Notes: generated by a model from the sequence alone, not told the origin. Positions 260 to 64,000 are shown, counted from the first letter of the stretch. The stretch is 64,000 bases of DNA from an uncultured Chloroflexia bacterium (GCA_963695505.1 CAVOGX010000012.1:120768-184767), one strand, 5' to 3'. A program made the numbers and translations.

Positions 260-1159
260 TTGGCGCATCAGGCGAAAGAGCACGGGGCAGCGGCGGCTTT
301 GCAAACGGCCGTTTCCGACCTGCACGTCTTCTTGCATGGGCTGCCTTCGGAAGCGTTACAGCCCAAGGCGTGGGGGCCGCGGGAGGTGTTGGCCCACCTG
401 GTTTTCTGGCTGGAGACCTACGCGACCCAGGTAGAAGCCATGCTGGCTGGCGATCCACCGCCGCGCCCTGTTGGCAGTTATGACCAGCTCAACCAGGCGG
501 CCATAGCCGCCAGCCAATCAGCCACCCTGGTAGATTTGCGGCAGCGCCACCTGGCCGCCAGTAGCCGCCTGGGTGACTTTGCCGCCAGCCACAACCCCGA
601 CACCTTGATTTTCACCCTCAAGGAGGGTTCTGCCCACCGCCGCCCGCTTTCCTGGTACATGCGCGCCGAAGCCCGGCATATCCGCCAACACCTGGCTAAA
701 CTCCAGGCCCAGCAGCAGTGGGATGGAGCAGCCGCTGGGCAAAGTTTGGCCACGGCCGTTTCCGACTTTTGTACCCTCATCACCTCTCTGCCGCCGGAAG
801 CGCTGGCAGCGCAGGCGTGGGGGCCACGTGGGGTGTTAGCGCATCTGGTTTTCTGGCACGAACGCTGGGCGCGAAATATTCAGGAAGTGTTAGCCGAACG
901 GCCGTTTAGCGGCCCATTTGGTACGGTACAGAAACTCAATGCGCTGGCCGTTGCTGAGGGGCGAAACGCTAACGTGGCTGACTTGCTGAAGGTGTTTCGC
1001 GCCGCATGCGAGCAACTGGTCCATTACGGCCGTACCGTCGACCCGCAAGCCATCGCTATTCCGCTGCGCCTGGCCCACGACCGGCGCACCCTGGATGACG
1101 TTCTCGCGGCCGCCACGGCGCACCTACAGGAGCATACCCAGGAACTTGGCGAGGTTTGA
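260..1159 (+). CDS. DinB/MDMPI-like four-helix-bundle protein, internally duplicated (two tandem domains)
   Basis: Two colinear repeats: LQTAVSDLHVFLHGLPSEALQPKAWGPREVLAHLVFW and LATAVSDFCTLITSLPPEALAAQAWGPRGVLAHLVFW. The ATG at 200 overlaps the upstream gene. TTG 260 with GGAG 7 nt upstream is more plausible, so the start is uncertain. Confidence 0.6.
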   Translation: MAHQAKEHGAAAALQTAVSDLHVFLHGLPSEALQPKAWGPREVLAHLVFWLETYATQVEAMLAGDPPPRPVGSYDQLNQAAIAASQSATLVDLRQRHLAASSRLGDFAASHNPDTLIFTLKEGSAHRRPLSWYMRAEARHIRQHLAKLQAQQQWDGAAAGQSLATAVSDFCTLITSLPPEALAAQAWGPRGVLAHLVFWHERWARNIQEVLAERPFSGPFGTVQKLNALAVAEGRNANVADLLKVFRAACEQLVHYGRTVDPQAIAIPLRLAHDRRTLDDVLAAATAHLQEHTQELGEV

Positions 1160-1197
1160 AACATGAAGTAAGGGTGAGGGTATCGCCAAAGCAGTGG

Positions 1198-1695
1198 TTA
1201 AGCATACAAGAAAGTGCCCGGATCATCTGCCCACATTTGCACCACTTTCTCAAACTGCATGCCCAGCTTCTCAATGAGCCTGATGGAGGCGGTGTTTTCG
1301 GGAACGGTGAGGGCCACAATTTGGGGGATGCCCAGAGTGGAACGGCCGTACTGTAAAACGGCCGTTGCCGCCTCGTAAGCGTACCCCTGGCGATGATAGG
1401 GCGACAGCAGGGCAAAGCCGACGTCCGTGACGTCCAGGCTGGGGCGGTAAAGCAGCCCGCACACGCCAATAGGCTCCCCACTGTCCTGCAACTCCACCAG
1501 CAACTGCCCGTAGCCCGGCCGGGGCTGGTTGGTCCACGCCCCTTCTTGAATGAAGCGTCGGGCGTCGTCCAGATTCCGCACCTCCTTGTCCCCAATGTGG
1601 GCCAGGAAAGCGGGTTCATTCACCAACCGCAGCACAAAGGCCGCGTCGTCCTTTGCCAACTTGCGCAGCCGCAGCCGCTTTGTTTCTAAAATCAT
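1198..1695 (-). CDS. GNAT family N-acetyltransferase (RimJ/RimL-like)
   Basis: 165 aa. MILETKRLRLRKL N-terminus and acetyl-CoA motif region SPYHRQGYAYEAATAVL are typical of RimJ-type GNATs. Confidence 0.8.
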   Translation of the reverse strand: MILETKRLRLRKLAKDDAAFVLRLVNEPAFLAHIGDKEVRNLDDARRFIQEGAWTNQPRPGYGQLLVELQDSGEPIGVCGLLYRPSLDVTDVGFALLSPYHRQGYAYEAATAVLQYGRSTLGIPQIVALTVPENTASIRLIEKLGMQFEKVVQMWADDPGTFLYA

Positions 1696-1809
1696 AATTT
1701 ATTCGTACTCTCAGGCTCGTTCCTAACGGTTTGCGGTACCGATTTCGCATATTGTTTTCGGAAAACGCGATGCTGGTGGCAATATGTTTTGTGAAACAAT
1801 CCTATAGTT

Positions 1810-2346
1810 CTACTGTTGGCTAAACTCTGGGCGCAATAAGCCATACATGATTCGATCCCAGCGTCGGCCATCACAGAAAATCGCTTCTCGTTCCTGCCCT
1901 TCTCGAACAAAACCACACTTTTCCAGGATTCGCTGGGCTGCCAGGTTATGGTTTGCCGTTTCTGCGCTCACGCGGTGCAAATCCAAATGCTGGAAGGCGT
2001 AACGCAGGAGTGTCACGGTCGCGTCCTTGCCATAGCCTTGCCCGCGGTTGACTTGCCGCGCAATACCCAATCCAATCTTAGCCGTACGCTGCCGCCAGTC
2101 GATGTGAGCAAGTTGGATGTCACCCAACAATTTACCGTCGTGGGTGAAAACGCCCAAATAGACATGCTGCTTTCCTTGCCCAGCTTGCATCTCCTCAAAC
2201 CATTTTTCAGCACCTTCAATGGATAACCCTGGGTTTAGCGGTTCGGTGGGTAAAGGCGCAGTTGGTTCATACGCCGCCCACAATTCTTTGCAATGCTCTC
2301 GTTCCAGTGTACGCAAAACAATTTTCTCGCCCGGTAATTCAATCAT
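1810..2346 (-). CDS. GNAT family N-acetyltransferase (RimJ/RimL-like)
   Basis: IELPGEKIVLRTLEREH... and GIARQVNRGQGYGKDATVTLL motifs. The internal ATG at 2346 has a GAGAGG SD; the ORF-track start at 2406 is less likely. Confidence 0.75.
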   Translation of the reverse strand: MIELPGEKIVLRTLEREHCKELWAAYEPTAPLPTEPLNPGLSIEGAEKWFEEMQAGQGKQHVYLGVFTHDGKLLGDIQLAHIDWRQRTAKIGLGIARQVNRGQGYGKDATVTLLRYAFQHLDLHRVSAETANHNLAAQRILEKCGFVREGQEREAIFCDGRRWDRIMYGLLRPEFSQQ

Positions 2347-2612
2347 TACACACACCTCTCGCTTTAGGACACTGCCTGACCCATTATCGCCCAATTCGCA
2401 GATCAACGGGCAACATATAAACCAGCTTTAGGGGCAGAACATAAAGCGGGATTCGAGAACCAAATATTAATGATATAACCGCTGTCAGTCAGCGTGTTGG
2501 CAGCAAGCGCTGGTTAGGCGCTGCTATCCGTCTCGCATAATGCTGGGCTTCATTATAACTGGCCCTCGGCAACTCTACCGCTGCTAAAATATCGTATCGC
2601 TACGTAACGACT

Positions 2613-3290
2613 TCACTCATCACTTTTAATAACCGTAGGTAGAAAGGTTGCACCAGGAGGGGCTTGATAGTAAATGCGAAAACCACACACCTGCGTATCA
2701 TTGCCCAGGTCATAAGGGCGCCAGTTGATGACATACGAATAGTTTAGGTAGTCGACCGTATGGGTAAATTCGCTGGTGGTGCCGTAGCCATTGCCGCTTT
2801 CACCGCTCGAATTGACCCCCCATTCGCTTACGATGGTGCCATACAAGTCATAAACAGTTAACCACGCAGACGAATTATAGGTGGCATTTGTGTCAAAGTA
2901 GTACATGCGCACATACTTCACCGTCGCACCCTGCGGCAGATACACCGGTGCGTTGAACACCGCATACGTACTGCCGCTGGAAGCGTAGATGCAGCCACCG
3001 CCACCGGCGCCAGTCCACTCCACATTGCTTTCCCGCGGCTTCAGCGCCGACCCCGAAATGCGTAGGGATGCGTTATAGGTGGCGGCCGTTTCGTCCACGG
3101 CACCAATGCTCTCAAGCTGGTCAGGCAAGCTTTGTACTTGCACCCCTTCCGGAATAGGTGCGCTGCTCAGCCAGATAGAGGTTTGGTCATCGTTCACTGG
3201 CGCCTGAGCCCAGCCGATGCCGCTGATGACCATGACTACACACAATAATCCCAGGGTTGCAGCCCCTAATAGCGCCAGGAACTTCTTCAT
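2613..3290 (-). CDS. Secreted hypothetical protein
   Basis: Signal peptide MKKFLALLGAATLGLLCVVMVISGIGWAQA. Asn/Tyr/Gly-rich beta-type sequence with no recognised domain. Confidence 0.6.
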   Translation of the reverse strand: MKKFLALLGAATLGLLCVVMVISGIGWAQAPVNDDQTSIWLSSAPIPEGVQVQSLPDQLESIGAVDETAATYNASLRISGSALKPRESNVEWTGAGGGGCIYASSGSTYAVFNAPVYLPQGATVKYVRMYYFDTNATYNSSAWLTVYDLYGTIVSEWGVNSSGESGNGYGTTSEFTHTVDYLNYSYVINWRPYDLGNDTQVCGFRIYYQAPPGATFLPTVIKSDE

Positions 3291-3725: not shown

Positions 3726-6008
3726 ATGGATATTTTGCATGGACTCAACGACGCGCAGAAAACGGCCGTTTCCGCCCCACCTGGCCCCGTTCTCGTCTTG
3801 GCCGGACCGGGCAGCGGCAAAACCCGCGTCCTCACCCACCGCATCGTCTACCTCATCCGCGAAGCTAAACGTCGCCCCCTGGCACATCCTGGCCGTCACC
3901 TTCACCAACAAGGCCGCCCGCGAAATGAACCAGCGCATCGAGCAGATGTCTGGACGGCCGTCCACGCGGCCTGATGATGGGCACCTTCCACTCCACCTGC
4001 GCCCGCATCTTGCGCCGCGAAACCGACAACCTGACCTACTACGAGCAACGATTTCGTCATCTTCGACACCGCCGACCAACAGCAGGTGGTGAAGCAAGCC
4101 CTCAAAGACCTGAACCTGGACGACAAAAAGTTCCCGCCCAACAAGATGCTCAACGGCATCAGCAGCGCCAAGAATGAACTGGTGACGCCCAGGAATTATA
4201 CACGCCACCAACTACATCGCCGCCGTCACGCGGCGTGTTTACGAGCGCTACCAGGACATTTTGCACGCCAACAACGCCATGGACTTTGACGATTTGCTGA
4301 TGAACACCGTGCTTGCTCTTTGACGAACGCCCCGACGTGCTGCAAAAGTACCAGCAGCAGTACCAGCACATCCTGGTAGACGAGTTTCAGGACACCAACA
4401 CGGCCCAATACGCGCTGCTCAAGCGGCTGGCGGTCGGCCATCAACAACATTTTTGTCGTCGGCGACAGCGACCAATCCATTTACAAATGGCGCGGCGCCG
4501 ACTTACCGCAACATCAATCGCTTCCGCGAGAAATTACCCGGAGGCGCAACAAATTTTGCTGGAGCAAAACTACCGCTCCACGCAGATTATTCTGGACGCG
4601 GCCAAGGCGGTCATTCAGCATAACAGCAACCGCGTCCACAAAGATTTGTTCACCGAGCGGCAGGGGGGCGACCTCATCGTCGTGCGGGAAGCGTATAACG
4701 ACGGGAGGAGGCGGAAACCATTGTGAGCACGATTCAATCTGCTCCTGCTGGACGGCTATTCCCCCAGCGATTTTGCCGTCATGTACCGCACCAACGCCCA
4801 ATCCCGCGCCCTGGAAGAAGCCTTTGTCCGCGCCAGCATGCCCTACCGGCTGGTGGGGGCCACCCAATTTTATAAGCGGCGCGAGGTGAAAGACGTGATT
4901 GCCTATTTGCGACTGGTGCATAATCCGGCCGATTCGGTCAGCTTCAACCGTATCATCAACACCCCCACGCGCGGCATTGGCACCAAAACCTGCAAACGCT
5001 GAACTGCCTGGGCGCAGCAAATGGGCTGGCTGCCAGCGGAAGCGCTAATGAAGCTGGCCTTGACCCGGACGTACAGCATCCGTTTAACGGCCGTGCCTTC
5101 AACGCCCTGAGCGACTTTGGCGAGATGTACTCGATGCCTGGATCACGCTGCACGAGCAGGAAATCAGCGTCGGCGAACTGATGGACACCATTTTGGAGCA
5201 AACCGGCTACCGCGAATACATCGAAGACAGCGCCAAAGACAGCGACGAGTACGTGGACCGCTGGGCCAACGTGATGGAACTGCGCAACACGGCCGCAGAA
5301 GACGGCCGTTTCCCTCACCGAATTCCTGGAACATGTCGGCCCTGGTCTCCGAAACCGACAACGTGGAAGAGGGCATTGCCGCCACCACGCTGCTCACCCT
5401 GCACGCCGCCAAAGGGCTGGAGTTTCCGGTCGTCTTCATCGTTGGGCTGGAGGATGGCATTCTGCCCCACAGCCGCTCGCTGGACGACCCGCGACGACCT
5501 GGACGAGGAGCGCCGCCTCTTTTACGTGGGCATCACTCGCGCCATGGACCGCCTTTACCTCTCCCACGCCTTCCGGCGCACGGTGTGGGGCCAGCCGGAC
5601 GTGGCTGTGCCCTCCCGCTTTTTGCGCGAGATTCCCGATGACCTGCTGGCGGGGGCCAGCGCTAAAGCGCGGCGGCAGCAAACGAAAACGCGGGCCAGCA
5701 GTTGGAATTGGTCTGCCCAAGCTACACCCACCACCCGGTCAACCAGAAACAGCAGGCAGCAACAGGAACGGCCGTTGCCCCGCTCCCGCTCATTGCCCAC
5801 GCCCAATACCTATGATGAACCCACGCCGCCAGCCCCCAGCGGTCCCAGATTCCACACCGGGCAGCGCGTGCGCCACGCCAAATTCGGCGAAGGCACCGTC
5901 ATCGACAGCAAAGTCGTCGGCAATGACGAAGAAGTCCACGTCGCCTTTGCCGGGGAAGGGGTCAAGCGTCTGGCCGCCTCCTTTGCCAAACTCGAAATTC
6001 TTGATTAG
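3726..6008 (+). pseudogene. pcrA: UvrD/PcrA-type ATP-dependent DNA helicase, broken into at least 8 frame pieces as assembled
   Basis: Helicase motifs appear in the correct order across ORFs 3726-3974, 3406-4092, 3974-4177, 4086-4289, 4313-4726, 4781-5002, 5117-5641 and 5181-6008: [61 protein letters not shown] and a C-terminal Tudor-like tail GQRVRHAKFGEGTV. Confidence 0.9.
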
Positions 6009-10950: not shown

Positions 10951-11934
<984 letters not shown>

Positions 11935-11951
11935 TTTTAGTCTCCTTGAAT

Positions 11952-12030
11952 CTGTCAGCTCGTCAGTAGTCTCAGTCAGTCAGCGCCAGATAGCTGAATG
12001 CTGACAATGACTACTTGACTAATTGACTGC
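11952..12030. repeat. Tandem-unit palindrome (GTCAGC/GTCAGT ... GCTGA/TTGAC units)
   Basis: Fills the spacer between the ATCase-like stop (12032) and the YgeW-like start (11934). Confidence 0.65.
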
Positions 12031-56158: not shown

Positions 56159-57553
56159 ATGCCTGAACTTGGTGAACCTCTCAGCGACCGCGAAATGGAC
56201 GTGCTGGCCTGCATGGTGCAAGGCGCGCAAAATAAAGAGATTGCCGCGGAGCTATTCATTAGCGAAAACACGGTGAAAGTACACCTGCGGCGTATTTACA
56301 CGAAGCTGGGCGTCTCTTCGCGTACCGAAGCCACCACCGTTGCCCTGCAAAAAGGGCTGGTAGCCGTGCCCGGCCTGGAAACAACCAGCCCCGTGGCGGA
56401 CGACCCAGACCCGGCAGCAGCAGACGTGGGTGTCGGGGAAGGGGAAGCCGAGTCTGGGGCAATATCCGACAATGTGCCTGAAACGGCCGTTTCTGACCTA
56501 TCTCCTGCTGCTCGCCCTGCGCCATGGCGCAATCTTGGTTTGGGAATCGCTCTCGTCGTCATTGTGGCGCTGCTGGGATTTGTTGTGTGGCAGCAGCAAA
56601 ACGTCATTGCGCCAGATGATGACCCGCAGACGTGCAGCGAGCGCCCCTTAGGCGATTCCCGCTGGTTGGTTAGCCAGGCTATGCCCGAGGGGCGAATGGG
56701 TATGGCCACGGCAGCCGTGGGCCTGGACATTTACCTCATTGGGGGAGGCAGCGGGCAGGATGCCGTGAACCAGGTCGACGTATACGATACGGCAAACTGC
56801 CAGTGGCGCTCGGGCGCGCCCAAGCCAACGGCCGTTTCCGACACGCGGGCAGCCGTCCTCTTCGGTGAAATCTATATTCCGGGCGGGCGGGGCGCAGATG
56901 GTTTACCCACCAGCACTGTGGAAGTGTTCAGTCCCGCCAACAACCTGTGGCGGACCATCGCCCCCCTGCCCGCACCCAACAGCGGCGGGCTGGTACTGGA
57001 ACAGGGCGGCTTGCTCTACCTCTTTGGCGGTTGGGATGGCGAGAGCTATTTGGCCACAGCTTACGCCTACAACCCGGCTCTGGACAGTTGGGAAACCCTG
57101 CCGCCTATGGGCCAGGCGCGCGCATTTGCCACCGGCGGCGCCCTCTCCGGGCTGCTTTTTGCGGTCGGTGGTTACGATGGCGCCAACGAACTGAATACCT
57201 GCGCCGCGTTCGATCCTGCTGGCAGCGCCTGGCAAGCCTGCCCCGGCATGCTTCAGCCCCGCGCCGGGGCCGGAGCAGTCGTCATCCTCAACAAGCTGTA
57301 CGTGATGGGCGGGGGCATGCAGGCCGACAGCCTCATTTCCTACGGTGAAGAATACAATCCGGCTACCCAAACCTGGCAAGTCGTGGACACGCCCATGCTC
57401 GGGAATGCTGGAAGCTGGTTCTTACCGGGCATCGCCAACATTGAAACCCGCATCTATGCTTTTGGCGGCCGCCAAAACGAGACAGTGCTGGCCGACACCT
57501 ACGTGCTGCGGGCTGTCTTCCAAACCTTTTTGCCCGCTATGCCCAATCAGTAA
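56159..57553 (+). CDS. LuxR-type HTH + TM + Kelch-repeat beta-propeller protein
   Basis: LSDREMDVLACMVQGAQNKEIAAELFISENTVKVHLRRIYTKLGV, TM GLGIALVVIVALLGFVVW, and repeated ..YLIGG/..YIPGG/..YLFGG/..FAVGG/..YVMGG Kelch blades. Confidence 0.75.
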   Translation: MPELGEPLSDREMDVLACMVQGAQNKEIAAELFISENTVKVHLRRIYTKLGVSSRTEATTVALQKGLVAVPGLETTSPVADDPDPAAADVGVGEGEAESGAISDNVPETAVSDLSPAARPAPWRNLGLGIALVVIVALLGFVVWQQQNVIAPDDDPQTCSERPLGDSRWLVSQAMPEGRMGMATAAVGLDIYLIGGGSGQDAVNQVDVYDTANCQWRSGAPKPTAVSDTRAAVLFGEIYIPGGRGADGLPTSTVEVFSPANNLWRTIAPLPAPNSGGLVLEQGGLLYLFGGWDGESYLATAYAYNPALDSWETLPPMGQARAFATGGALSGLLFAVGGYDGANELNTCAAFDPAGSAWQACPGMLQPRAGAGAVVILNKLYVMGGGMQADSLISYGEEYNPATQTWQVVDTPMLGNAGSWFLPGIANIETRIYAFGGRQNETVLADTYVLRAVFQTFLPAMPNQ

Positions 57554-60118
57554 TGGCCCAATCTGGGGGTATGTACCAGGCCAATTTTGCGCGATACGGC
57601 CGTTTCCTGCGCACACTGGCCTTGTTTCTCGGTGTTTTGATTTTTCTGGTCTGGGGTGTGTGGGGCACGTTGCCGCACACCGCACTGCGCAGCCTGTTCA
57701 GCCCCATCACGGCCGTTGACATCAACCAGCACCGCCGCGACACCCCCGCCCCCATACCCACAGGCGCTTTCACCCTGCAGCAAACCTTCACCCCCCGCTG
57801 GAATGGCTTTCGTGAGCTGGAAGTTCGCTTTTATCGTGTTGCAGAAACGCCGAATGCCGGCAAGCATTACCTTGCGCTTGCAAGACGCCGGTGGGCAAAC
57901 CATCAGCGAAGCCACGCTGCCCAACGACACAATAGCCCAGGACCAGCGTCACGTGATGCAATTTCCGCCCCAGGCAAACTCTGCCGGGCAGGTGTACACG
58001 CTGGCTGTTAGCGGAGATGCGTGCCAACGAAGTGTCGCTTTGGGGGTATGGCTTGGATGCCCATGCGGGGGGCGCGCTGGCCCTGGTTTACGGCCCGTTG
58101 GCGGCCGAAACGGCCGAAACCCCCACCAGCGCCGCCGACCTCACCTTTACCACCCGCTACCACCTAACCGGGAAAGATGCCCTGGCCTACCTGGGTCAAA
58201 CGTTAACCCGGCAGGGAAGCCTGCTGCTGCTCACCCTGCTCTTTTTGCTGCTGCCTGGCGCGCTGCTGCTGCTGGGGTGGCGCAGCCCTCTTTCACATTG
58301 GGACGCCGCAGCCTGGACCGGCACAGCTTTGGCCCTGGGAACGGCCGTCTGGCCTCTGCTTTGGCAGTTTCTGACCCTGTTAGGCGGGCGCTGGCGCGGG
58401 TGGTCTCTGTGGGCGGTACTCATCCTGGGCTGGCTGGCCGTCCTTTGGCTGCTTTGGAAAAGATGGAACGCAGAGTTTCGCAGAGAAAAAACACCAAAAG
58501 CGCTGTTTGCTCCTCCGCGCCCTTGCTCCTCTGCTCCCTTGCTCCCCCACGTCTCCGCTCCCTTGCTTCCCCGCTCCTCCGCGCCCTTGCTCCTCGTTCT
58601 GCTGCTCGCCGTAGGGCTGGCGGTGCGGCTGCTGGCGGTGCGGGACATTAACATCCCGCCCTGGGTAGACGCCAGCCGCCACGGCCTGATTACGGCCGTG
58701 ATGCGCGACAGCGGCCAGGCCATCAGCGACTACGGGAGCTATTTGCCCGTTACCCGTTTTCCCTACCATTACGGCTTCCACACCCTTTCCGCCAGCCTGG
58801 CGCTGCTGTCGGGGCGACCCTTGCCAGAGCTGCTGCTCTTTTTGGGGCAGTTACTCAATGCCCTGGTGCCGCTGACCACCTATGCGGCGCTGTGGCTGCT
58901 GACGCGGCGGCCTATGGCCGGGCTGCTGGGGGCCTTTTTCGTGGCGCTGCCCTTTTTGTTCCCGGGCTACTACGCCACCTGGGGCCGCCTGACGCAGCTC
59001 ACAGCCATGCTGCTCATGCCGCTGGCCCTGGCCCTGACCTGGCTGGTGGTGCGCGGGGGCCGAGTTGGCGGCGGGGCTGGTGGCTGCTGGCACTGCTGGC
59101 GGCGGGGCTGTTTTTGGTGCATTTTCGCGTGTTTACCTTTTATTTGCCTTTTGCGGCGCTGGTGTGGCTGGCGAGCCGGGGGCGCAACGGCCGTTTCCTG
59201 GCTTTGGCGGCTGCGGTGGGGCTGCTGCTGGTCAGCCCGCGCCTCTGGCAGTTACTGTCCGTCACCGACCCGGCGCGGGCCATCAACGCCGGCCCCAGCG
59301 ACTACAACGCCTTCCCCACCGGTTACCTGGAAGCGGGCTGGGAGCAGGCCTTTGTGGCCCTGGGCGCCATTTGCCTGGCGCTGGCCCTGGCAGGCGCACT
59401 CAAACGCCGCCGCTGGGCGGCGCTGCCCCTGCTGCTGGCGGCCTGGGTGGCGGCCCTTTTCTTGCTGCTGGCGGGCGAGCGGCTGGGGCTGCCGGAAACC
59501 TGGGTGATTAACCTGAACAGCATGTACATCACCCTCTTTTTGCCCCTGGCCATGCTGCTGGCTGTAACGGCCGTTCAGGTGTGGCAATGGCTGGCGCGGC
59601 AGCGCTGGTGGCTGCAAATGACGGCCAGCTTGCTGGCGGGCGGGCTGCTGGCGGCCCTGTTCCTCTTTGGCGTGCGCAATCAGGTCAACATCCTCAATCC
59701 GCAGACGGTTTTGGCGGAGCCGCCGGACCTGGCGGGCATAGCCTGGGTCGATGCCCACCTGCCGCCGGAGGCACTCATTGCCGTGAGCAGTTGGCAATGG
59801 CTGGGGCAAACCTGGGCCGGGCAGGACGGCGGGGCGTGGCTGACGCCTTTAACCCAGCGCCAAACCACCACGCCCCCGGCCGACTACATTTACAACCGGG
59901 ATTTGGCGGAAGAGGTGCGGGCTTTCAACGAAACGGCCGTGGCCGTGGCCGACTGGAGCGACCCGGCCCAGGCGGAATGGCTGCGGCAGCAGGGGGTCAC
60001 CCACGTCTTTGTGGGCGCGCGGGGCGGCTTTTTTGACCCGGCGGCCCTGGCCCGCAACCCGGAATTGGAATTGCTGTACGCGGAAGATGGCGTATTTGTC
60101 TTTGCCGTGCGCGACTAA
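57553..60118 (+). pseudogene. Large GT-C-like membrane glycosyltransferase, about 3 frameshifts as assembled
   Basis: TAATG overlap with the upstream gene. Colinear pieces are 57553-58011, 57656-58651 (part), 58017-59507 and 58892-60118. Many TM segments are followed by a soluble C-terminus. Confidence 0.65.
58509..58595. repeat. 8-nt periodic tract (GCTCCTCC/GCGCCCTT/GCTCCCTT...) in-frame in a CDS
   Basis: Read as APPRPCSSAPLLPHVSAPLLPRSSAPLL. Confidence 0.75.
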
Positions 60119-60204
60119 CGTTTAGCTGAGGAACGCAGCCGCTGGCCATTAACAGCCAGGCCCCGCTTGTTTCAACTTTTTGGTTGGCGATGGTGGTTTT
60201 TTTG

Positions 60205-60234
60205 TTGACTCACATCAAAGCTTCTGCATATACT
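60205..60234 (+). promoter_or_regulatory. Sigma70-like promoter (copy A)
   Basis: TTGACT - 18 nt - TATACT, conserved in copy B. Confidence 0.6.
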
Positions 60235-60266
60235 GTCGTAGAATGCCTCATTCGTAGAATGCCTTT

Positions 60267-60320
60267 ATGCGGCGGCTGGTAAGCTGGATGGTAAGGGTTG
60301 TTTTTCACCGCACCGCATGA
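60267..60320 (+). other. Conserved 17-codon mini-ORF / quasi-palindromic leader element (copy A)
   Basis: ATG CGG CGG CTG ... ACC GCA TGA = MRRLVSWMVRVVFHRTA. It has the same length and frame as copy B despite many substitutions. There is no obvious SD. Confidence 0.35.
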
Positions 60321-60361
60321 ATAGCTTAATTCGTTAGGGAGCGTATTAGATCGAAGCGCAG

Positions 60362-61108
60362 ATGCACCAAAAACAGATTTCTCTCGTCAGGTCAATGATT
60401 GAAAAAGAAGTAAGCGAAAATTGGGCGCGTCTATACAAAGTGCCCAGTACATTTACGTGGAAATGCCTTGACCATCTCAGCAGTCTGAAACCCTCTAGCC
60501 AGGAGAAAGTGTTTGCGGAAATTTCATTGAGAGCTCCGATCATGCTGGGATCAGTAAATCCACCAACAAAGTGGGATGAGTCGATCCTGAAGCATTTCTA
60601 CGAAGGGGTCCTTCAATCTCCGAGTGAGCATATATCATCAAGACTACTTCGCGGGATGCTCGCATCAAAGCAGGTGGATGGGGCGGAAAGTATGTTTGCG
60701 AATTTGTCTGATGAGATGGTTGAAAAAGCTAAATCCATCAACCCCACCAAGGCATCTGAAATCCGAAAGGTAGTTAAGCGTGAATTCGCAGATCACTTTG
60801 GCAGCAATCCAGTAAATTTTGGGGGAGGGACTTGGAAGTATGAGGGGGAATCATCGTCAAGGCGCATATCCGTTCTAATCGATTATGGCGGCCTTGGTGA
60901 TCAGCTGCGCTACTGGGTCGAGTTTCAAGATCAAACCAATATGCTGCACCCGAGGATGTTGACTTATGAAGGACTGCTTGGAATGGGGCATGGCCGTTGG
61001 GATTATGTCACAGCGGACAATCTTGTAGCTAGTATCCAACTGCTTCGGGAAATGATCGAAGAATTGGCTACTATACCAGATCGGCTCAAATCATTTGGCT
61101 CCATCTAA
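60362..61108 (+). CDS. Orphan hypothetical protein (248 aa) in the AT-rich island
   Basis: Intact ORF, GC visibly lower than the host, no ACGGCCGT motif and no recognisable domain. Confidence 0.6.
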   Translation: MHQKQISLVRSMIEKEVSENWARLYKVPSTFTWKCLDHLSSLKPSSQEKVFAEISLRAPIMLGSVNPPTKWDESILKHFYEGVLQSPSEHISSRLLRGMLASKQVDGAESMFANLSDEMVEKAKSINPTKASEIRKVVKREFADHFGSNPVNFGGGTWKYEGESSSRRISVLIDYGGLGDQLRYWVEFQDQTNMLHPRMLTYEGLLGMGHGRWDYVTADNLVASIQLLREMIEELATIPDRLKSFGSI

Positions 61109-61115
61109 CCACTCC

Positions 61116-61281
61116 CTGGAGCGACTCGGCCCAGGCGGCATGGCTGCGGCAGCAGGGGGTCACCCACGTCTTTGTGGGCGCGCGGGGCGGCTTTTTCGAC
61201 CCGGCGGCCCTGGCCCGCAACCCGGCAATGGAATTGCTGTACGCTGATGATGGCGTATTTGTGTTTGCCGTGCGTGATTAG
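61116..61281 (+). pseudogene. Relic 3' fragment (~55 codons) of a diverged allele of the GT-C gene
   Basis: Reads WSDSAQAAWLRQQGVTHVFVGARGGFFDPAALARNPAMELLYADDGVFVFAVRD*, versus the native WSDPAQAEWLRQQ...NPELELLYAEDGVFVFAVRD*. Several of the differences are synonymous. Confidence 0.85.
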
Positions 61282-61368
61282 CGTTTAGCGGAGGAACGCA
61301 GCCGCTGGCCACCGGCAGCCAGGCTCAACTTGTTTCATCTCTGTTGGTTGGCGATGGTGATTTTTTTG

Positions 61369-61398
61369 TTGACTAACATCAAAACTTCTGCATATACT
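61369..61398 (+). promoter_or_regulatory. Sigma70-like promoter (copy B)
   Basis: TTGACT - 18 nt - TATACT. Confidence 0.6.
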
Positions 61399-61532
61399 GT
61401 ACCTGGAAATGGGTCGCCTTTGGAGGTTAGGTTAGCCAGGAAAATGCCTGAATCCTCAAGGGAAAACAGACCCGCTTTCCCAACTTTGTTCAACCGCGAT
61501 TTAACTAAATGCCGCATTTGGAAAATGCCATT

Positions 61533-61586
61533 ATGCGGCGGCTGACGCACTGGTTGATGAAGGTCGTTTTTCACTGCACCGCATGA
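61533..61586 (+). other. Conserved 17-codon mini-ORF / quasi-palindromic leader element (copy B)
   Basis: MRRLTHWLMKVVFHCTA. Confidence 0.35.
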
Positions 61587-61645
61587 AACGCTTAATTCGT
61601 TAGCTAGCTTTTCGATACAATGAAGTGGTGAACAGAAGAGGAATC

Positions 61646-63394
61646 ATGTTTATTGATGGGCTAGGCATTTCAAACTACAGAAGTTTCGGGAATGAGATTC
61701 AACTGATGAGTCCATTCGCGAAAATAAATCTTTTCATCGGGAAAAACAACTCGGGGAAATCCAATATCCTTCTGTTTTTTTCAAACCATTATCAACAAAC
61801 ACTTAATGCTTTTCATAACAAAAATGCGAGTTTGAGTCTACAAGCATTAGATCGACCTGTTGGGATCAGTTCTGACAAAATAAGAATTGCATTCCCACTT
61901 GTCCCAGAACGTAGAGCCTATAAAACTTTACTTGACAAATGTGAAAAGGCATTAGGCTCATCCCAATTATTAGTGAAAGTATTGAGTTCGAAAGCTTTTT
62001 CATTTGGAGCGGAGGATATTTGGTTATCTTTTGAGTCCCAATGGGATGGGAATAAAATACTGATCTTTCCCAGTGGCATTTTCAAATCAATTCAGTCTGA
62101 AAATGTTTTGAGAGAAGGAGAGTGGCAAAAACTTTGGAGTTCACTGGTAGAAAAATCAGGTGGAAGTATTAATAGACATTGGATACCTGAGACCATCGAT
62201 TGGATACGAAGGAACACCGAATTCGCTATTCCGAAGGTAACATTAATTCCGGCAATTCGTCGAGTACAAGCTGGTCAATCTGAATCTGATGATTATAGCA
62301 GTTTGGGAATCATCGATCGCCTTGCGAAACTGCAAAACCCAGATTATGACCAACAAGGTTTGAAGGATGCCTTTGAAGAAATTAATAATTTTCTCCGCAA
62401 CGTAACCGGAGATAATTCTGCTACTCTTGAAATACCATATGAGCGTGACAAAATAATTGTTCACATGAATAACAAATCTTTGCCACTCAGCTCTTTGGGG
62501 ACTGGCATTCATGAAGTCGTAATATTGGCTTCTGCTGCAACAGTTTTGCAGGATCAGGTTATTTGCATTGAAGAACCTGAATTGCATTTACATCCTTCGT
62601 TGCAAAAGAAGTTAATCCAGTACATGGTAGAAAAAACTAATAACCAATATTTTATTACTACACATTCAGCGCATTTGTTGGATACTACAAATGCTGCGAT
62701 ATTTCATGTTTACTTGCGAGATGGGGTGTCTATTATCAGTGCTGTAAATTCTGATTCTCAGAAATCTGCTATTTGTGCTGATCTAGGATATCGCGCATCA
62801 GATTTGTTGCAGACAAATTGTGTTATTTGGGTAGAAGGTCCATCAGATCGTATATATCTAAATCACTGGATAAAAGCACAAGATCCTGATCTTTTCGAAG
62901 GTGTTCACTATTCCATAATGTTTTATGGTGGAAGATTGCTCAGCCACCTAAGCGCAGATGATCCGGAAATTGACGAGTTTATTTCTCTTCGACGATTAAA
63001 TAGAAATATTTGTATTTTGATGGATAGTGATCGTCAAAAACCGCGCTCCCGAATAAATCAGACGAAAAAACGTGTTCAGGATGAGTTCGATAGAGGTCCG
63101 GGGTTTTCGTGGGTGACTAAAGGGCGAGAAGTGGAAAATTATATTGACCCAGAACAACTTGAAACGGCAGTGTGTGAAGTTCATTCACAAGCAACCGGAT
63201 TGATTGATACAAATATGTATGCCAATTGTCTTAAACGGTACAAAACAAAAAAGGGTATTTCAAATCAAGGCGCAGATAAGGTTAAGGTTGCACGTGAGGT
63301 AGTTAAGTCGCCAGCTAATTTGGATGTGCTTGACCTAAAACAAATGATATCGAAAGTTGTTAACTTCATTCATGAATCAAATGACATAAGGTAA
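61646..63394 (+). CDS. OLD-family nuclease: ABC-type ATPase fused to a Toprim domain
   Basis: Walker A FIGKNNSGKSN, signature-like LSSLGTGIHE, Walker B VICIEEPELHLHP, H-loop ITTHSAHLL, Toprim Glu CVIWVEGPSDRIYL and DxD ICILMDSDRQ. ATG 61646 follows AGAGGA (the ORF track gives GTG 61625). Strongly AT-rich. Confidence 0.85.
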   Translation: MFIDGLGISNYRSFGNEIQLMSPFAKINLFIGKNNSGKSNILLFFSNHYQQTLNAFHNKNASLSLQALDRPVGISSDKIRIAFPLVPERRAYKTLLDKCEKALGSSQLLVKVLSSKAFSFGAEDIWLSFESQWDGNKILIFPSGIFKSIQSENVLREGEWQKLWSSLVEKSGGSINRHWIPETIDWIRRNTEFAIPKVTLIPAIRRVQAGQSESDDYSSLGIIDRLAKLQNPDYDQQGLKDAFEEINNFLRNVTGDNSATLEIPYERDKIIVHMNNKSLPLSSLGTGIHEVVILASAATVLQDQVICIEEPELHLHPSLQKKLIQYMVEKTNNQYFITTHSAHLLDTTNAAIFHVYLRDGVSIISAVNSDSQKSAICADLGYRASDLLQTNCVIWVEGPSDRIYLNHWIKAQDPDLFEGVHYSIMFYGGRLLSHLSADDPEIDEFISLRRLNRNICILMDSDRQKPRSRINQTKKRVQDEFDRGPGFSWVTKGREVENYIDPEQLETAVCEVHSQATGLIDTNMYANCLKRYKTKKGISNQGADKVKVAREVVKSPANLDVLDLKQMISKVVNFIHESNDIR

Positions 63395-63555
63395 AGGGCA
63401 CCAGCCAACTTGGGTTGTGTCTGACCAGGGCTAAGCCCTGCGGGGAAGCGGCGCGATTTTTGATGAGTTAGCCTGAGGCAAAGGATCGTCAGGGTCAAAC
63501 CCGCCCCGGCAGCTAAGCCAACCGTTAGGCAGCAACCCCAGATGGAGGTTCAGAT

Positions 63556-64000
63556 ATGGTGAACAGAGAGCGGCGCGATTGGTCACACTTCGCCCTGCTG
63601 CTCGTCGATGTGCAGCAGAGCTTCTGGCCGGTGCAGGGCAGGCCGGACTTCCCCGACTTCCCGGCAAACGTAGCGCGCCTGCTGGCTCTCTGCCGGTCCG
63701 AAGGGCTGGAAGTCATCCACGTGCGCTCCCGGTTCAAGCCGGACAAGTCGGATTGGATGCTCATGTACCGCCTGCGCGTCCCCGTCAGCTCATCACCCAT
63801 GCGTAGCCGGGCAGGAGGGAGAAAAGCCGGCGCCCTTTGCCGCCAGCGAACCTGGGGAGCTTGTTGTCTACAAGCAGACCTTCGATGCCCTGCATACGCC
63901 GGAACTGGTTCCCTATCTGCGCGAGAATGACAAGCGGGTCCTCTTGGTGGCCGGGCTGCTTACTTCGGTTTGCGTCTTCTTTACCGCAGCATCGGCTGCC
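63556..64000 (+). pseudogene. Isochorismatase-family cysteine hydrolase (partial at window edge, frameshift near 63790)
   Basis: FALLLVDVQQSFW... and, in another frame, ...KQTFDALHTPELVPYLRENDKRVLLVAGLLTSVCVFFTA. Confidence 0.7.

Follow-up and report, generated by a model that had tools for sequence, protein, structure and literature searches.

Two genes of an uncultured Chloroflexia bacterium lie behind duplicated IS91-like origin ends joined to a host gene tail

Why should two unrelated neighbouring genes on a bacterial chromosome each be headed by the same block of about 400 bp, in which the end of a third gene is followed by a promoter-like site and a leader? The question is raised by a stretch of 64,000 nucleotides (nt) from an uncultured Chloroflexia bacterium (GCA_963695505.1, CAVOGX010000012.1:120768-184767), referred to here as the window; coordinates are those of the whole stretch unless another sequence is named. 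The block was noticed in a sequence-only reading of the window, in which each cargo gene was thought to bring its own promoter and leader. Comparison with mobile elements gave a different answer. The module is identified by homology as a chimera, in which the final 165 nt of a host gene are joined to the oriIS-side (origin-end) terminal non-coding region of an insertion sequence (IS) of the IS91 family; the leader is the end of the element, and the cargos merely adjoin its terminus.

The repeat was mapped by repeat finding and by blastn of the window against itself, and the coordinates given in the sequence-only reading were found to be correct for both copies. Matching blocks were 59953-60177 with 61116-61340 (225 nt, 91%), 60180-60236 with 61344-61400 (57 nt, 95%) and 60242-60342 with 61508-61608 (101 nt, 80%); by blastn the copies aligned over 285 nt at 91.2% identity (E 4e-113) and over 96 nt at 81% (E 2e-21). 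No third copy was found in the window using blastn. As had also been noted, the copies open with the final 55 codons of the upstream gene, and copy B begins at the eighth base past the stop of an open reading frame (ORF) of 248 amino acids (aa), the spacer being ccactcc. The parts of the module are as follows.

59953-60337, + strand: copy A, whole
59953-60118, + strand: copy A, part 1; the genuine end of the host gene, its final 55 codons with the stop (165-166 nt)
60121-60332, + strand: copy A, part 2; apparent oriIS-side 3' non-coding remnant of an IS91-family IS, ending ...CTTAATTC and lacking 107 nt kept by B, with a promoter-like site at 60205-60234 and a hairpin at 60261-60325
60333-60336, + strand: GTTA tetranucleotide after the copy A terminus, a target-like site
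61116-61603, + strand: copy B, whole
61116-61281, + strand: copy B, part 1; relic of the final 55 codons of the host gene, now outside any gene, with 11 differences from A
61284-61598, + strand: copy B, part 2; apparent longer IS91-family 3'/oriIS remnant with its terminus ...CTTAATTC at 61598, a promoter-like site at 61369-61398, the segment lacking in A at 61401-61507, a GTTCAACC box at 61488-61495 and a hairpin at 61527-61591
61599-61602, + strand: GTTA tetranucleotide after the copy B terminus

The tail is translated as WSDPAQAEW...AVRD* in A and as WSDSAQAAW...AVRD* in B. Guanine-plus-cytosine (GC) content drops from ~65% to 36-48% over 60150-63450.

The non-coding part was traced by its distribution. 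Marine, sediment, plastic and mangrove metagenomes contained the final ~80 nt (61524-61602) next to many kinds of flanking sequence, and the match always broke off at 61601-61604; in one metagenome run their read depth was above that of the surrounding locus. Ends of mobile elements behave in this way, with many flanks and a fixed break. When Joint Genome Institute (JGI) metagenomes were scanned for a pattern of two conserved leader blocks, there was one match, on a 3.1-kb contig (L007), where the motif stood ~330 nt downstream of genes for a 293-aa tyrosine recombinase and a 357-aa IS91-family transposase. The recombinase carried the Pfam domains Phage_int_SAM_4 and Phage_integrase, and the transposase Zn_Tnp_IS91 and Y2_Tnp, with an NCBIfam transpos_IS91 score of 405 bits. 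Further IS contigs were reached via close and more distant homologues of the transposase. The motif lay ~300-390 nt past the stop of the IS91-family transposase gene in L007, L008, L011-L013 and L020, and likewise on the Herpetosiphon plasmid pHAU01.

The ends of the parent element were defined from five independent flanks (L007, L008/L011, L012, L013 and L020). The element is ~2.48 kb long, and from its left end to its right end the integron-like tyrosine recombinase comes before the Y2/HUH transposase; the intact copy in L007 occupies 599-3075 of that contig, on the reverse strand. The constant left end is GTTGAACTAAGCGC..., and the constant right end is ...CTTAGTTCAACC-NGGATT-ATGCGGCGGCTG-N31-GC(A/G)CCGCAT-G-AATCC-TTAA(A/T)(A/T/C)C, of which the core can be written in compact form as ...ATGCGGCGGCTG-N31-GC(A/G)CCGCATGAATCCTTAA(A/T)(A/T/C)C. 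When five right and five left junctions were compared, the flanks shared no sequence, and neither target duplication nor terminal inverted repeats were found at these insertions. The tetranucleotide past the right end was GTTA in L007, L008, L020 and both window copies, GTTG in L012 and GTTT in metagenome contigs X8 and X11; the exception was GATG in L013. Intact elements also carry an inverted box pair, GTTGAACTAAG at the extreme left end and CTTAGTTCAAC ~95 nt inside the right end.

Both window copies align to this right end, of which B keeps 170 nt or more, the GTTCAACC box among them. The 107 additional bases of copy B (61401-61507), which in the alignment stand between the -10 box and the final ~96 nt, are further IS right end, and A is therefore the deleted form; an A-type contig from metagenome X1 has the identical 107-nt skip. 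The termini fall at the identical base, ...CTTAATTC at 60332 in A and at 61598 in B, and in both GTTAG follows. An nhmmer profile of the right end gave just two matches in the window, A at 60261-60335 (E 1e-15) and B at 61485-61601 (E 3e-19). A covariance model (R1) was built from six IS copies with the window sequences excluded. Its matches were copy A at 60250-60338 (31.5 bits, E 3e-5), copy B at 61517-61604 (26.2 bits, E 5e-4) and a copy on an independent contig, L014; the IS on plasmid pHAU01 of Herpetosiphon aurantiacus was recovered too, at 47.9 bits. Thirteen pairs make up the subterminal hairpin, which has a single constant bulge and 97% of cells paired; four pairs show compensatory double changes over three IS subgroups, which none of 500 shuffles reached. 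On these comparisons the leader is assigned to the right (oriIS-side) end of an IS91-family element and not to host DNA, with an exact boundary and a covarying hairpin.

Stacking at this end is also seen in a cultured relative. On pHAU01 (CP000876.1, L025) an element with IS91 transposase and integrase ends, at 3870-4073, in a perfect tandem of two 102-nt right-end hairpin units, which shows that such stacking occurs on its plasmid.

The left limit of the IS-derived part is less sharp. In copy A it was placed at ~60121-60157 because of a match to the 3' region of a further IS copy (L021): a 29-nt stretch 38-66 nt past the host stop matches 43-72 nt past the L021 transposase stop (z 4.3), the corresponding match in B being 61320-61348. 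IS-derived sequence thus seems to begin within ~40 nt of the host-gene stop. When the region from stop to promoter was compared with the 3' regions of five IS copies, L021 alone gave a significant match.

Some details set the remnants apart. A unit of ~16 nt containing AATGCC is locally duplicated in tandem just 5' of the hairpin in both (60242-60266 and 61505-61532); intact IS copies are without the duplication. In the window, different bases (GCC.TT / AA..GC) make up the rebuilt lower helix. The leader was also considered as a riboswitch or attenuator, an idea dropped given the IS homology and the sharp terminus; a scan of 59800-64000 with Rfam in E-value mode gave nothing on the leader. Viral contigs held neither a relative of the IS transposase nor the leader motif.

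The promoter described in the sequence-only reading, TTGACT-N18-TATACT, was recovered by a promoter scan in both copies (60205-60234 and 61369-61398), with a 10/12 match to consensus in each. The IS of L013 has TTGCTA-N18-TATACT 181 nt from its right end; in the window the distance is 201 nt, or 170 nt if a 31-nt local duplication is discounted. The site thus probably belongs to the oriIS region of the element. The two cargo genes start just past the IS terminus in the same direction, and both are therefore probably transcribed from an IS-borne outward promoter of the sigma-70 type.

The presence of a tyrosine recombinase in the parent element bears on the earlier description of the locus as integron-like. 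On that account the IS-linked integron-like recombinase would integrate cassettes made of a cargo and a hairpin end, the hairpin and its GTTAGG core serving as an attC/attI-like site. The IS recombinase is indeed nearest to integron integrases (TIGR02249, 201 bits), and IS91-linked recombinases have been described as the closest homologues of IntI, without the IntI-specific insertion (bioRxiv 10.1101/542381). The junctions GTTAGGG, GTTAGCT and GTTAGGC recall GTTRRRY, the GTTCAAC box fits RYYYAAC, and the hairpin has one conserved extrahelical base. The locus further resembles a cassette array in its co-oriented single-gene units and in a structured repeat with a GTTAGG-type core. However, the score of 201 bits compares with a cut-off of 265 and comes from two separate stretches, the IntI-specific segment being unmatched, and neither recombinase nor intI was found in the window by tblastn. 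As candidate R'' and R' boxes, GTTCAAC and GTTAGGN show complementarity at AAC/GTT only and have spacers of 7 and 13 nt; the 5' box is missing altogether from copy A. Unlike integron arrays, the window has no attI and a promoter for each unit, its repeat fails as an attC site, and that repeat is an IS terminus, of the usual IS91 type in its behaviour and with a tetranucleotide target. Cassette integration of this kind is thus very unlikely, and the array is integron-like in appearance and not in mechanism. We give equally little credence to the related proposal that the right end of this IS91 subgroup doubles as an attC-like site and that the locus is a transposase-independent proto-integron; if this were true, such an end would point to a link, in mechanism and in evolution, from IS91-type elements to integrons.

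The order of the locus recurs elsewhere, which supports the tandem stacking claimed in the sequence-only reading. A 1374-nt contig from an independent metagenome-assembled genome (MAG; GCA_041552295.1, L014) is colinear with 59987-61361 at 97.4% identity and has the identical junction (248-aa stop, ccactcc, CTGGAGC), and the junction between the 248-aa gene and copy B is spanned also by metagenome contigs X3 and X8. An assembly artefact, in which strain variants of the types gene-module-248 and gene-module-OLD were falsely joined through the shared module, was considered here. The assembly is of metagenome type with many single-base frameshifts, and the junction of B with the OLD-family gene that follows it was seen in this assembly only, no run being found to hold it. 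Against this stand the A-248-B order and exact 248/B junction in the independent MAG contig and in contigs of other metagenomes. Moreover, bases specific to B appear from 61126, 10 nt past the unique junction, which leaves no long shared stretch for a false join, and B-type sequence runs unbroken into the OLD gene on a contig that spans 202 kb. A false join is therefore extremely improbable.

In L014 four or five B-like sites stand in a second copy that is mostly A-like, a mosaic that shows gene conversion; exchange of sequence between the copies does occur. Comparison with relatives, which the sequence-only reading had called for, was made in six related Ardenticatenaceae-type genomes. Similarity was lost at the stop codon of the host gene in these, and none of the six had the module. 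The next genes past the orthologue were acyl-CoA dehydrogenase and electron transfer flavoprotein (ETF) in four, a convergent NUDIX/nusB pair in one and a 1-kb low-GC orphan ORF in one. The last of these, L002 (a 74%-identical relative), has at 11020-12003 a stretch of ~1 kb with 40-46% GC and an orphan ORF of 227 aa past the orthologue, without the IS module; a small insertion is present at this gene end here as well.

The genes and the further possible end that lie beyond the two termini are the following.

60362-61108, + strand: cargo 1, an ORF for a 248-aa protein, 45-48% GC
61646-63394, + strand: cargo 2, an OLD-family ATPase of 582 aa from the ATG at 61646, 36-42% GC
63422-63523, + strand: possible third oriIS-like end (C), unrelated in sequence to A and B and followed by GTTAGGC at 63524

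Cargo 1 starts 30 nt past the IS terminus of copy A and cargo 2 starts 48 nt past that of copy B, both on the + strand. The 248-aa protein gave no match in Pfam, PADLOC or NCBIfam. Its AlphaFold2 (AF2) model (predicted local distance difference test score, pLDDT, 91.7; predicted template modelling score, pTM, 0.88) has a helical N-terminal half and a small beta-sheet, and no fold match to it was found in the PDB. The gene is 95-99% identical at the nucleotide level in marine, plastic, mangrove and sediment metagenomes, and five homologues of the protein (36-55% identity) occur in unrelated contexts. Cargo 2 matched AAA_15 (E 1e-23) and AAA_21 in Pfam and the AriA, GajA and Old models of PADLOC, with an OLD-like TOPRIM match that was weak (E 0.007) and below the cut-off; it is a candidate defence (anti-phage) nuclease. 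No IS end was found near the 248-aa homologues (L015-L018) or near the nearest OLD homologue (L026). The homologues of the two cargos are not neighbours of each other, so the cargos are not a conserved pair.

The OLD gene appears to vary between strains. No relative closer than 64% identity was found among 5.8 billion proteins, and the gene was absent from seven metagenomes with the 248-aa gene (X1-X5, X8 and X11). A search of other sequencing runs for the gene or for the B-to-OLD junction found neither, with scraps only in X16. The gene behind copy B is thus found only in this genome and the site therefore varies, as the sequence-only reading had predicted.

End C lies between the OLD gene and an isochorismatase-like gene. 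It is multi-copy in sediment metagenomes, where it has a sharp right edge at 63521-63530 (...GCCAACC/GTTAGGC) and differing flanks, and its layout, a long imperfect hairpin and a tail, resembles an IS end when read from the sequence. It could, tentatively, represent an origin end from some other IS91-type lineage.

How, then, did a host gene tail come to be copied together with the end of an IS? The preferred reading, to which a probability of about 0.58 is given, is that an oriIS remnant with the host gene tail was mobilised by one-ended rolling-circle transfer of the IS91 type and inserted at GTTA, with later gene conversion. An IS, or a 'miniature' right-end fragment, would first have landed just past the host gene. 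Transposase supplied in trans from an intact IS copy would later have nicked the orphan oriIS, and rolling-circle displacement would have run leftwards past the remnant into the host gene, stopping at CTGG (59953). The resulting unit, gene tail and oriIS region (61116-61598), would then have entered behind the 248-aa gene, on the 5' side of a GTTA target, after which the two copies would have swapped patches by gene conversion. Equivalently, the GTTA that stayed next to the resident oriIS would have received units of the type GTTA...cargo...oriIS in succession. The left edge of copy B, CTGG, fits the degenerate cleavage pattern of the family, S-T-B-S, which holds for ~5% of tetranucleotides.

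Published counterparts exist, the first being IS91. That element has the order terIS-orf-tnpA-oriIS with overlapping stop and start, and its tetranucleotide target adjoins oriIS, has T at position 2 and is not duplicated; the final 82 bp and the tetranucleotide are sufficient with transposase working in trans, and frequent failure of termination mobilises DNA past terIS (PMC13181058). The parent element here is alike in its functionally distinct ends, in having neither terminal inverted repeats nor target duplication, in a tetranucleotide at oriIS, in a subterminal palindrome and in an upstream ORF whose stop overlaps the tnpA start (PMC13181058), the recombinase stop overlapping the transposase start as GTGGTAG. 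Unlike IS91, its upstream ORF is the 293-aa tyrosine recombinase and not Orf121, and its target is GTTA/GTTG and not CTTG/GTTC. Known IS91-family targets (CTTG, GTTC and GTCC) differ from those found here and have T at position 2 in common with them. The IS transposase is 42-53% identical to its nearest plasmid-borne relatives.

For IS801 of Pseudomonas syringae pv. phaseolicola, right-end miniatures of 229-679 nt were trapped experimentally, with 290-1431 nt of upstream gene carried along, and these pieces start at a ter-like tetranucleotide (PMC3189936). The likeness to the window lies in transposase-less fragments that keep the ori end, co-mobilised pieces of the upstream gene and transposase acting in trans (PMC3189936). 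The IS801 events were trapped by experiment, whereas those of the window are read from sequence; here the unit would be an already truncated remnant with a host gene tail, and its left edge, CTGG, is not on record.

The third counterpart is found in complex class 1 integrons, where ISCR1 stands 24 bp past sul1, a 232-bp oriIS region with outward promoters drives variable co-oriented genes, and the adjoining 3' conserved segment (3'-CS) is duplicated (PMC6218425, PMC3575428). The window is alike in an oriIS region some tens of bases past the stop of a conserved gene, in variable co-oriented acquired genes directly past oriIS and in a partly duplicated adjoining conserved segment, here 165 nt of the host gene tail, which together with oriIS stands in front of each captured region. 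In the ISCR1 integrons the oriIS region of ~230 bp has outward promoters, whereas the promoter here is putative (PMC6218425, PMC3575428). Unlike them, the window array has oriIS remnants of only 95-315 nt and no transposase gene, and the parent IS has a tyrosine recombinase. The array sits on an Ardenticatenaceae-like Chloroflexota chromosome, the tail of a membrane-protein gene takes the place of the 3'-CS, and the cargo is an OLD-family nuclease and a 248-aa protein, not resistance genes. By analogy, the window would fit the published IS91/ISCR pattern point for point, the transposase gene apart.

Several observations weigh against the mobilisation just described. Neither the transposase nor the recombinase (by tblastn), nor the left end of the IS, was found in the 64-kb window, and CTGG is not among the tetranucleotides recorded for IS91 or IS801. 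Single-strand fold energies of the ends, on both strands, were no better than those of shuffled sequences; the energy not being significant, the hairpin rests on covariation. Activity of the promoter is predicted from sequence alone. Copy B differs from A by 9%, so that it is either an old copy made within the genome or one from another lineage, and a transposition intermediate cannot cross between cells unaided. Strains with A-248-B and without the OLD gene exist, and the simplest version, in which B was dropped between an adjacent 248-aa gene and OLD gene, therefore needs a later loss or replacement. End C, which the serial-insertion variant needs, was matched neither by nhmmer nor by the covariance model and has no linked transposase. 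Finally, the authors of the IS801 study attributed most genomic IS801 fragments to rearrangement and not to one-ended transposition (PMC3189936).

A rival close to the sequence-only reading is recombination without a transposase, in which the dead IS remnant would serve as homology only and DNA of a related strain, with the same tail and remnant and a different cargo, would have been taken up by transformation or in some other way. The stacking could be due to a Campbell-type single crossover after circularisation of the fragment, or to homology-facilitated illegitimate recombination, with one end anchored in the shared module and the other joined at 61115/61116; gene conversion would then have homogenised the copies. 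The 9% divergence is compatible with an allele from another lineage, as are the QAAW and Met states that copy B has in common with an intact orthologue of the host gene (L001). The mosaic in L014 shows homologous exchange at this locus, the window lacks a transposase, and IS801 fragments were found by Bardaji et al. to be mostly substrates of recombination (PMC3189936). An 86%-identical B-type module (gene tail, promoter and long remnant) in a more distant organism, X11, is in keeping with this account, and tells us only that the long form is present further afield. However, the junction between the 3' flank of the 248-aa gene and the middle of the host gene is not made by homology alone, and an ad hoc illegitimate join is needed. 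The sequence-only reading had invoked recombination through the gene's 3' end; by itself this cannot make the junction 61115/61116, for which an illegitimate or a transpositional step is required. The start of cargo exactly at the IS terminus with GTTAG is left unexplained, as is the intactness of the hairpin and terminal blocks despite a diverging loop. The 11 differences between the tails fall at two first, two second and seven third codon positions (taa/tag counted), and the third-position excess of 7/11 is not significant (p ~0.13, mixed model). The claim that copy B was once a functional allele elsewhere leaned on this bias, which is not significant given the constraint on A itself; the evidence now points only faintly to such an origin. 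We regard recombination without a transposase as possible, and rather unlikely.

The gene that contributed the tail was examined as the remaining part of the locus.

57415-60118, + strand: host gene for a large polytopic membrane protein (earlier called 'GT-C'), in at least three frame pieces in the assembly

By tblastn, the intact 890-aa orthologue (L001) covers 57415-60112 in frames 1, 3 and 2. The label 'GT-C' is left unproven, since the product had no Pfam match and the L001 orthologue gave only DUF6541, below threshold. Frameshifts were located near 57880, 58040 and 59062, and one more near 63787-63790 in the gene at 63556-64000. The X3 contig has an additional C at 59062, which restores RGGRAWRRGWW as in the L001 orthologue, and reads show 1-nt differences at 63787-63790; the likeliest cause of the frameshifts is indel error in the assembly, not gene decay. 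At 58509-58609 the host gene contains a repeat with a period of 8 nt (GCTCC...), coding for a low-complexity stretch of the SAPLLP type.

The locus is thus best read as a Chloroflexota example of the known IS91/ISCR-type capture of genes at an origin end, with a co-duplicated host gene tail, and not as a new system; its nearest parallels are the ISCR1-linked complex class 1 integrons and the right-end miniatures of IS801. For annotation, a repeated 'promoter + leader' in front of unrelated island genes should be checked for orphan IS91-type ends before regulatory leaders or integron-like sites are called. The recombinase-linked IS91 subgroup gains defined ends, a target tetranucleotide and a hairpin supported by covariation. 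On the preferred reading, origin-end gene capture, best known from resistance regions of Proteobacteria, operates on the chromosome of an uncultured marine or sediment Chloroflexota bacterium, where it places a candidate anti-phage OLD nuclease and a 248-aa gene behind portable IS ends with a putative promoter.

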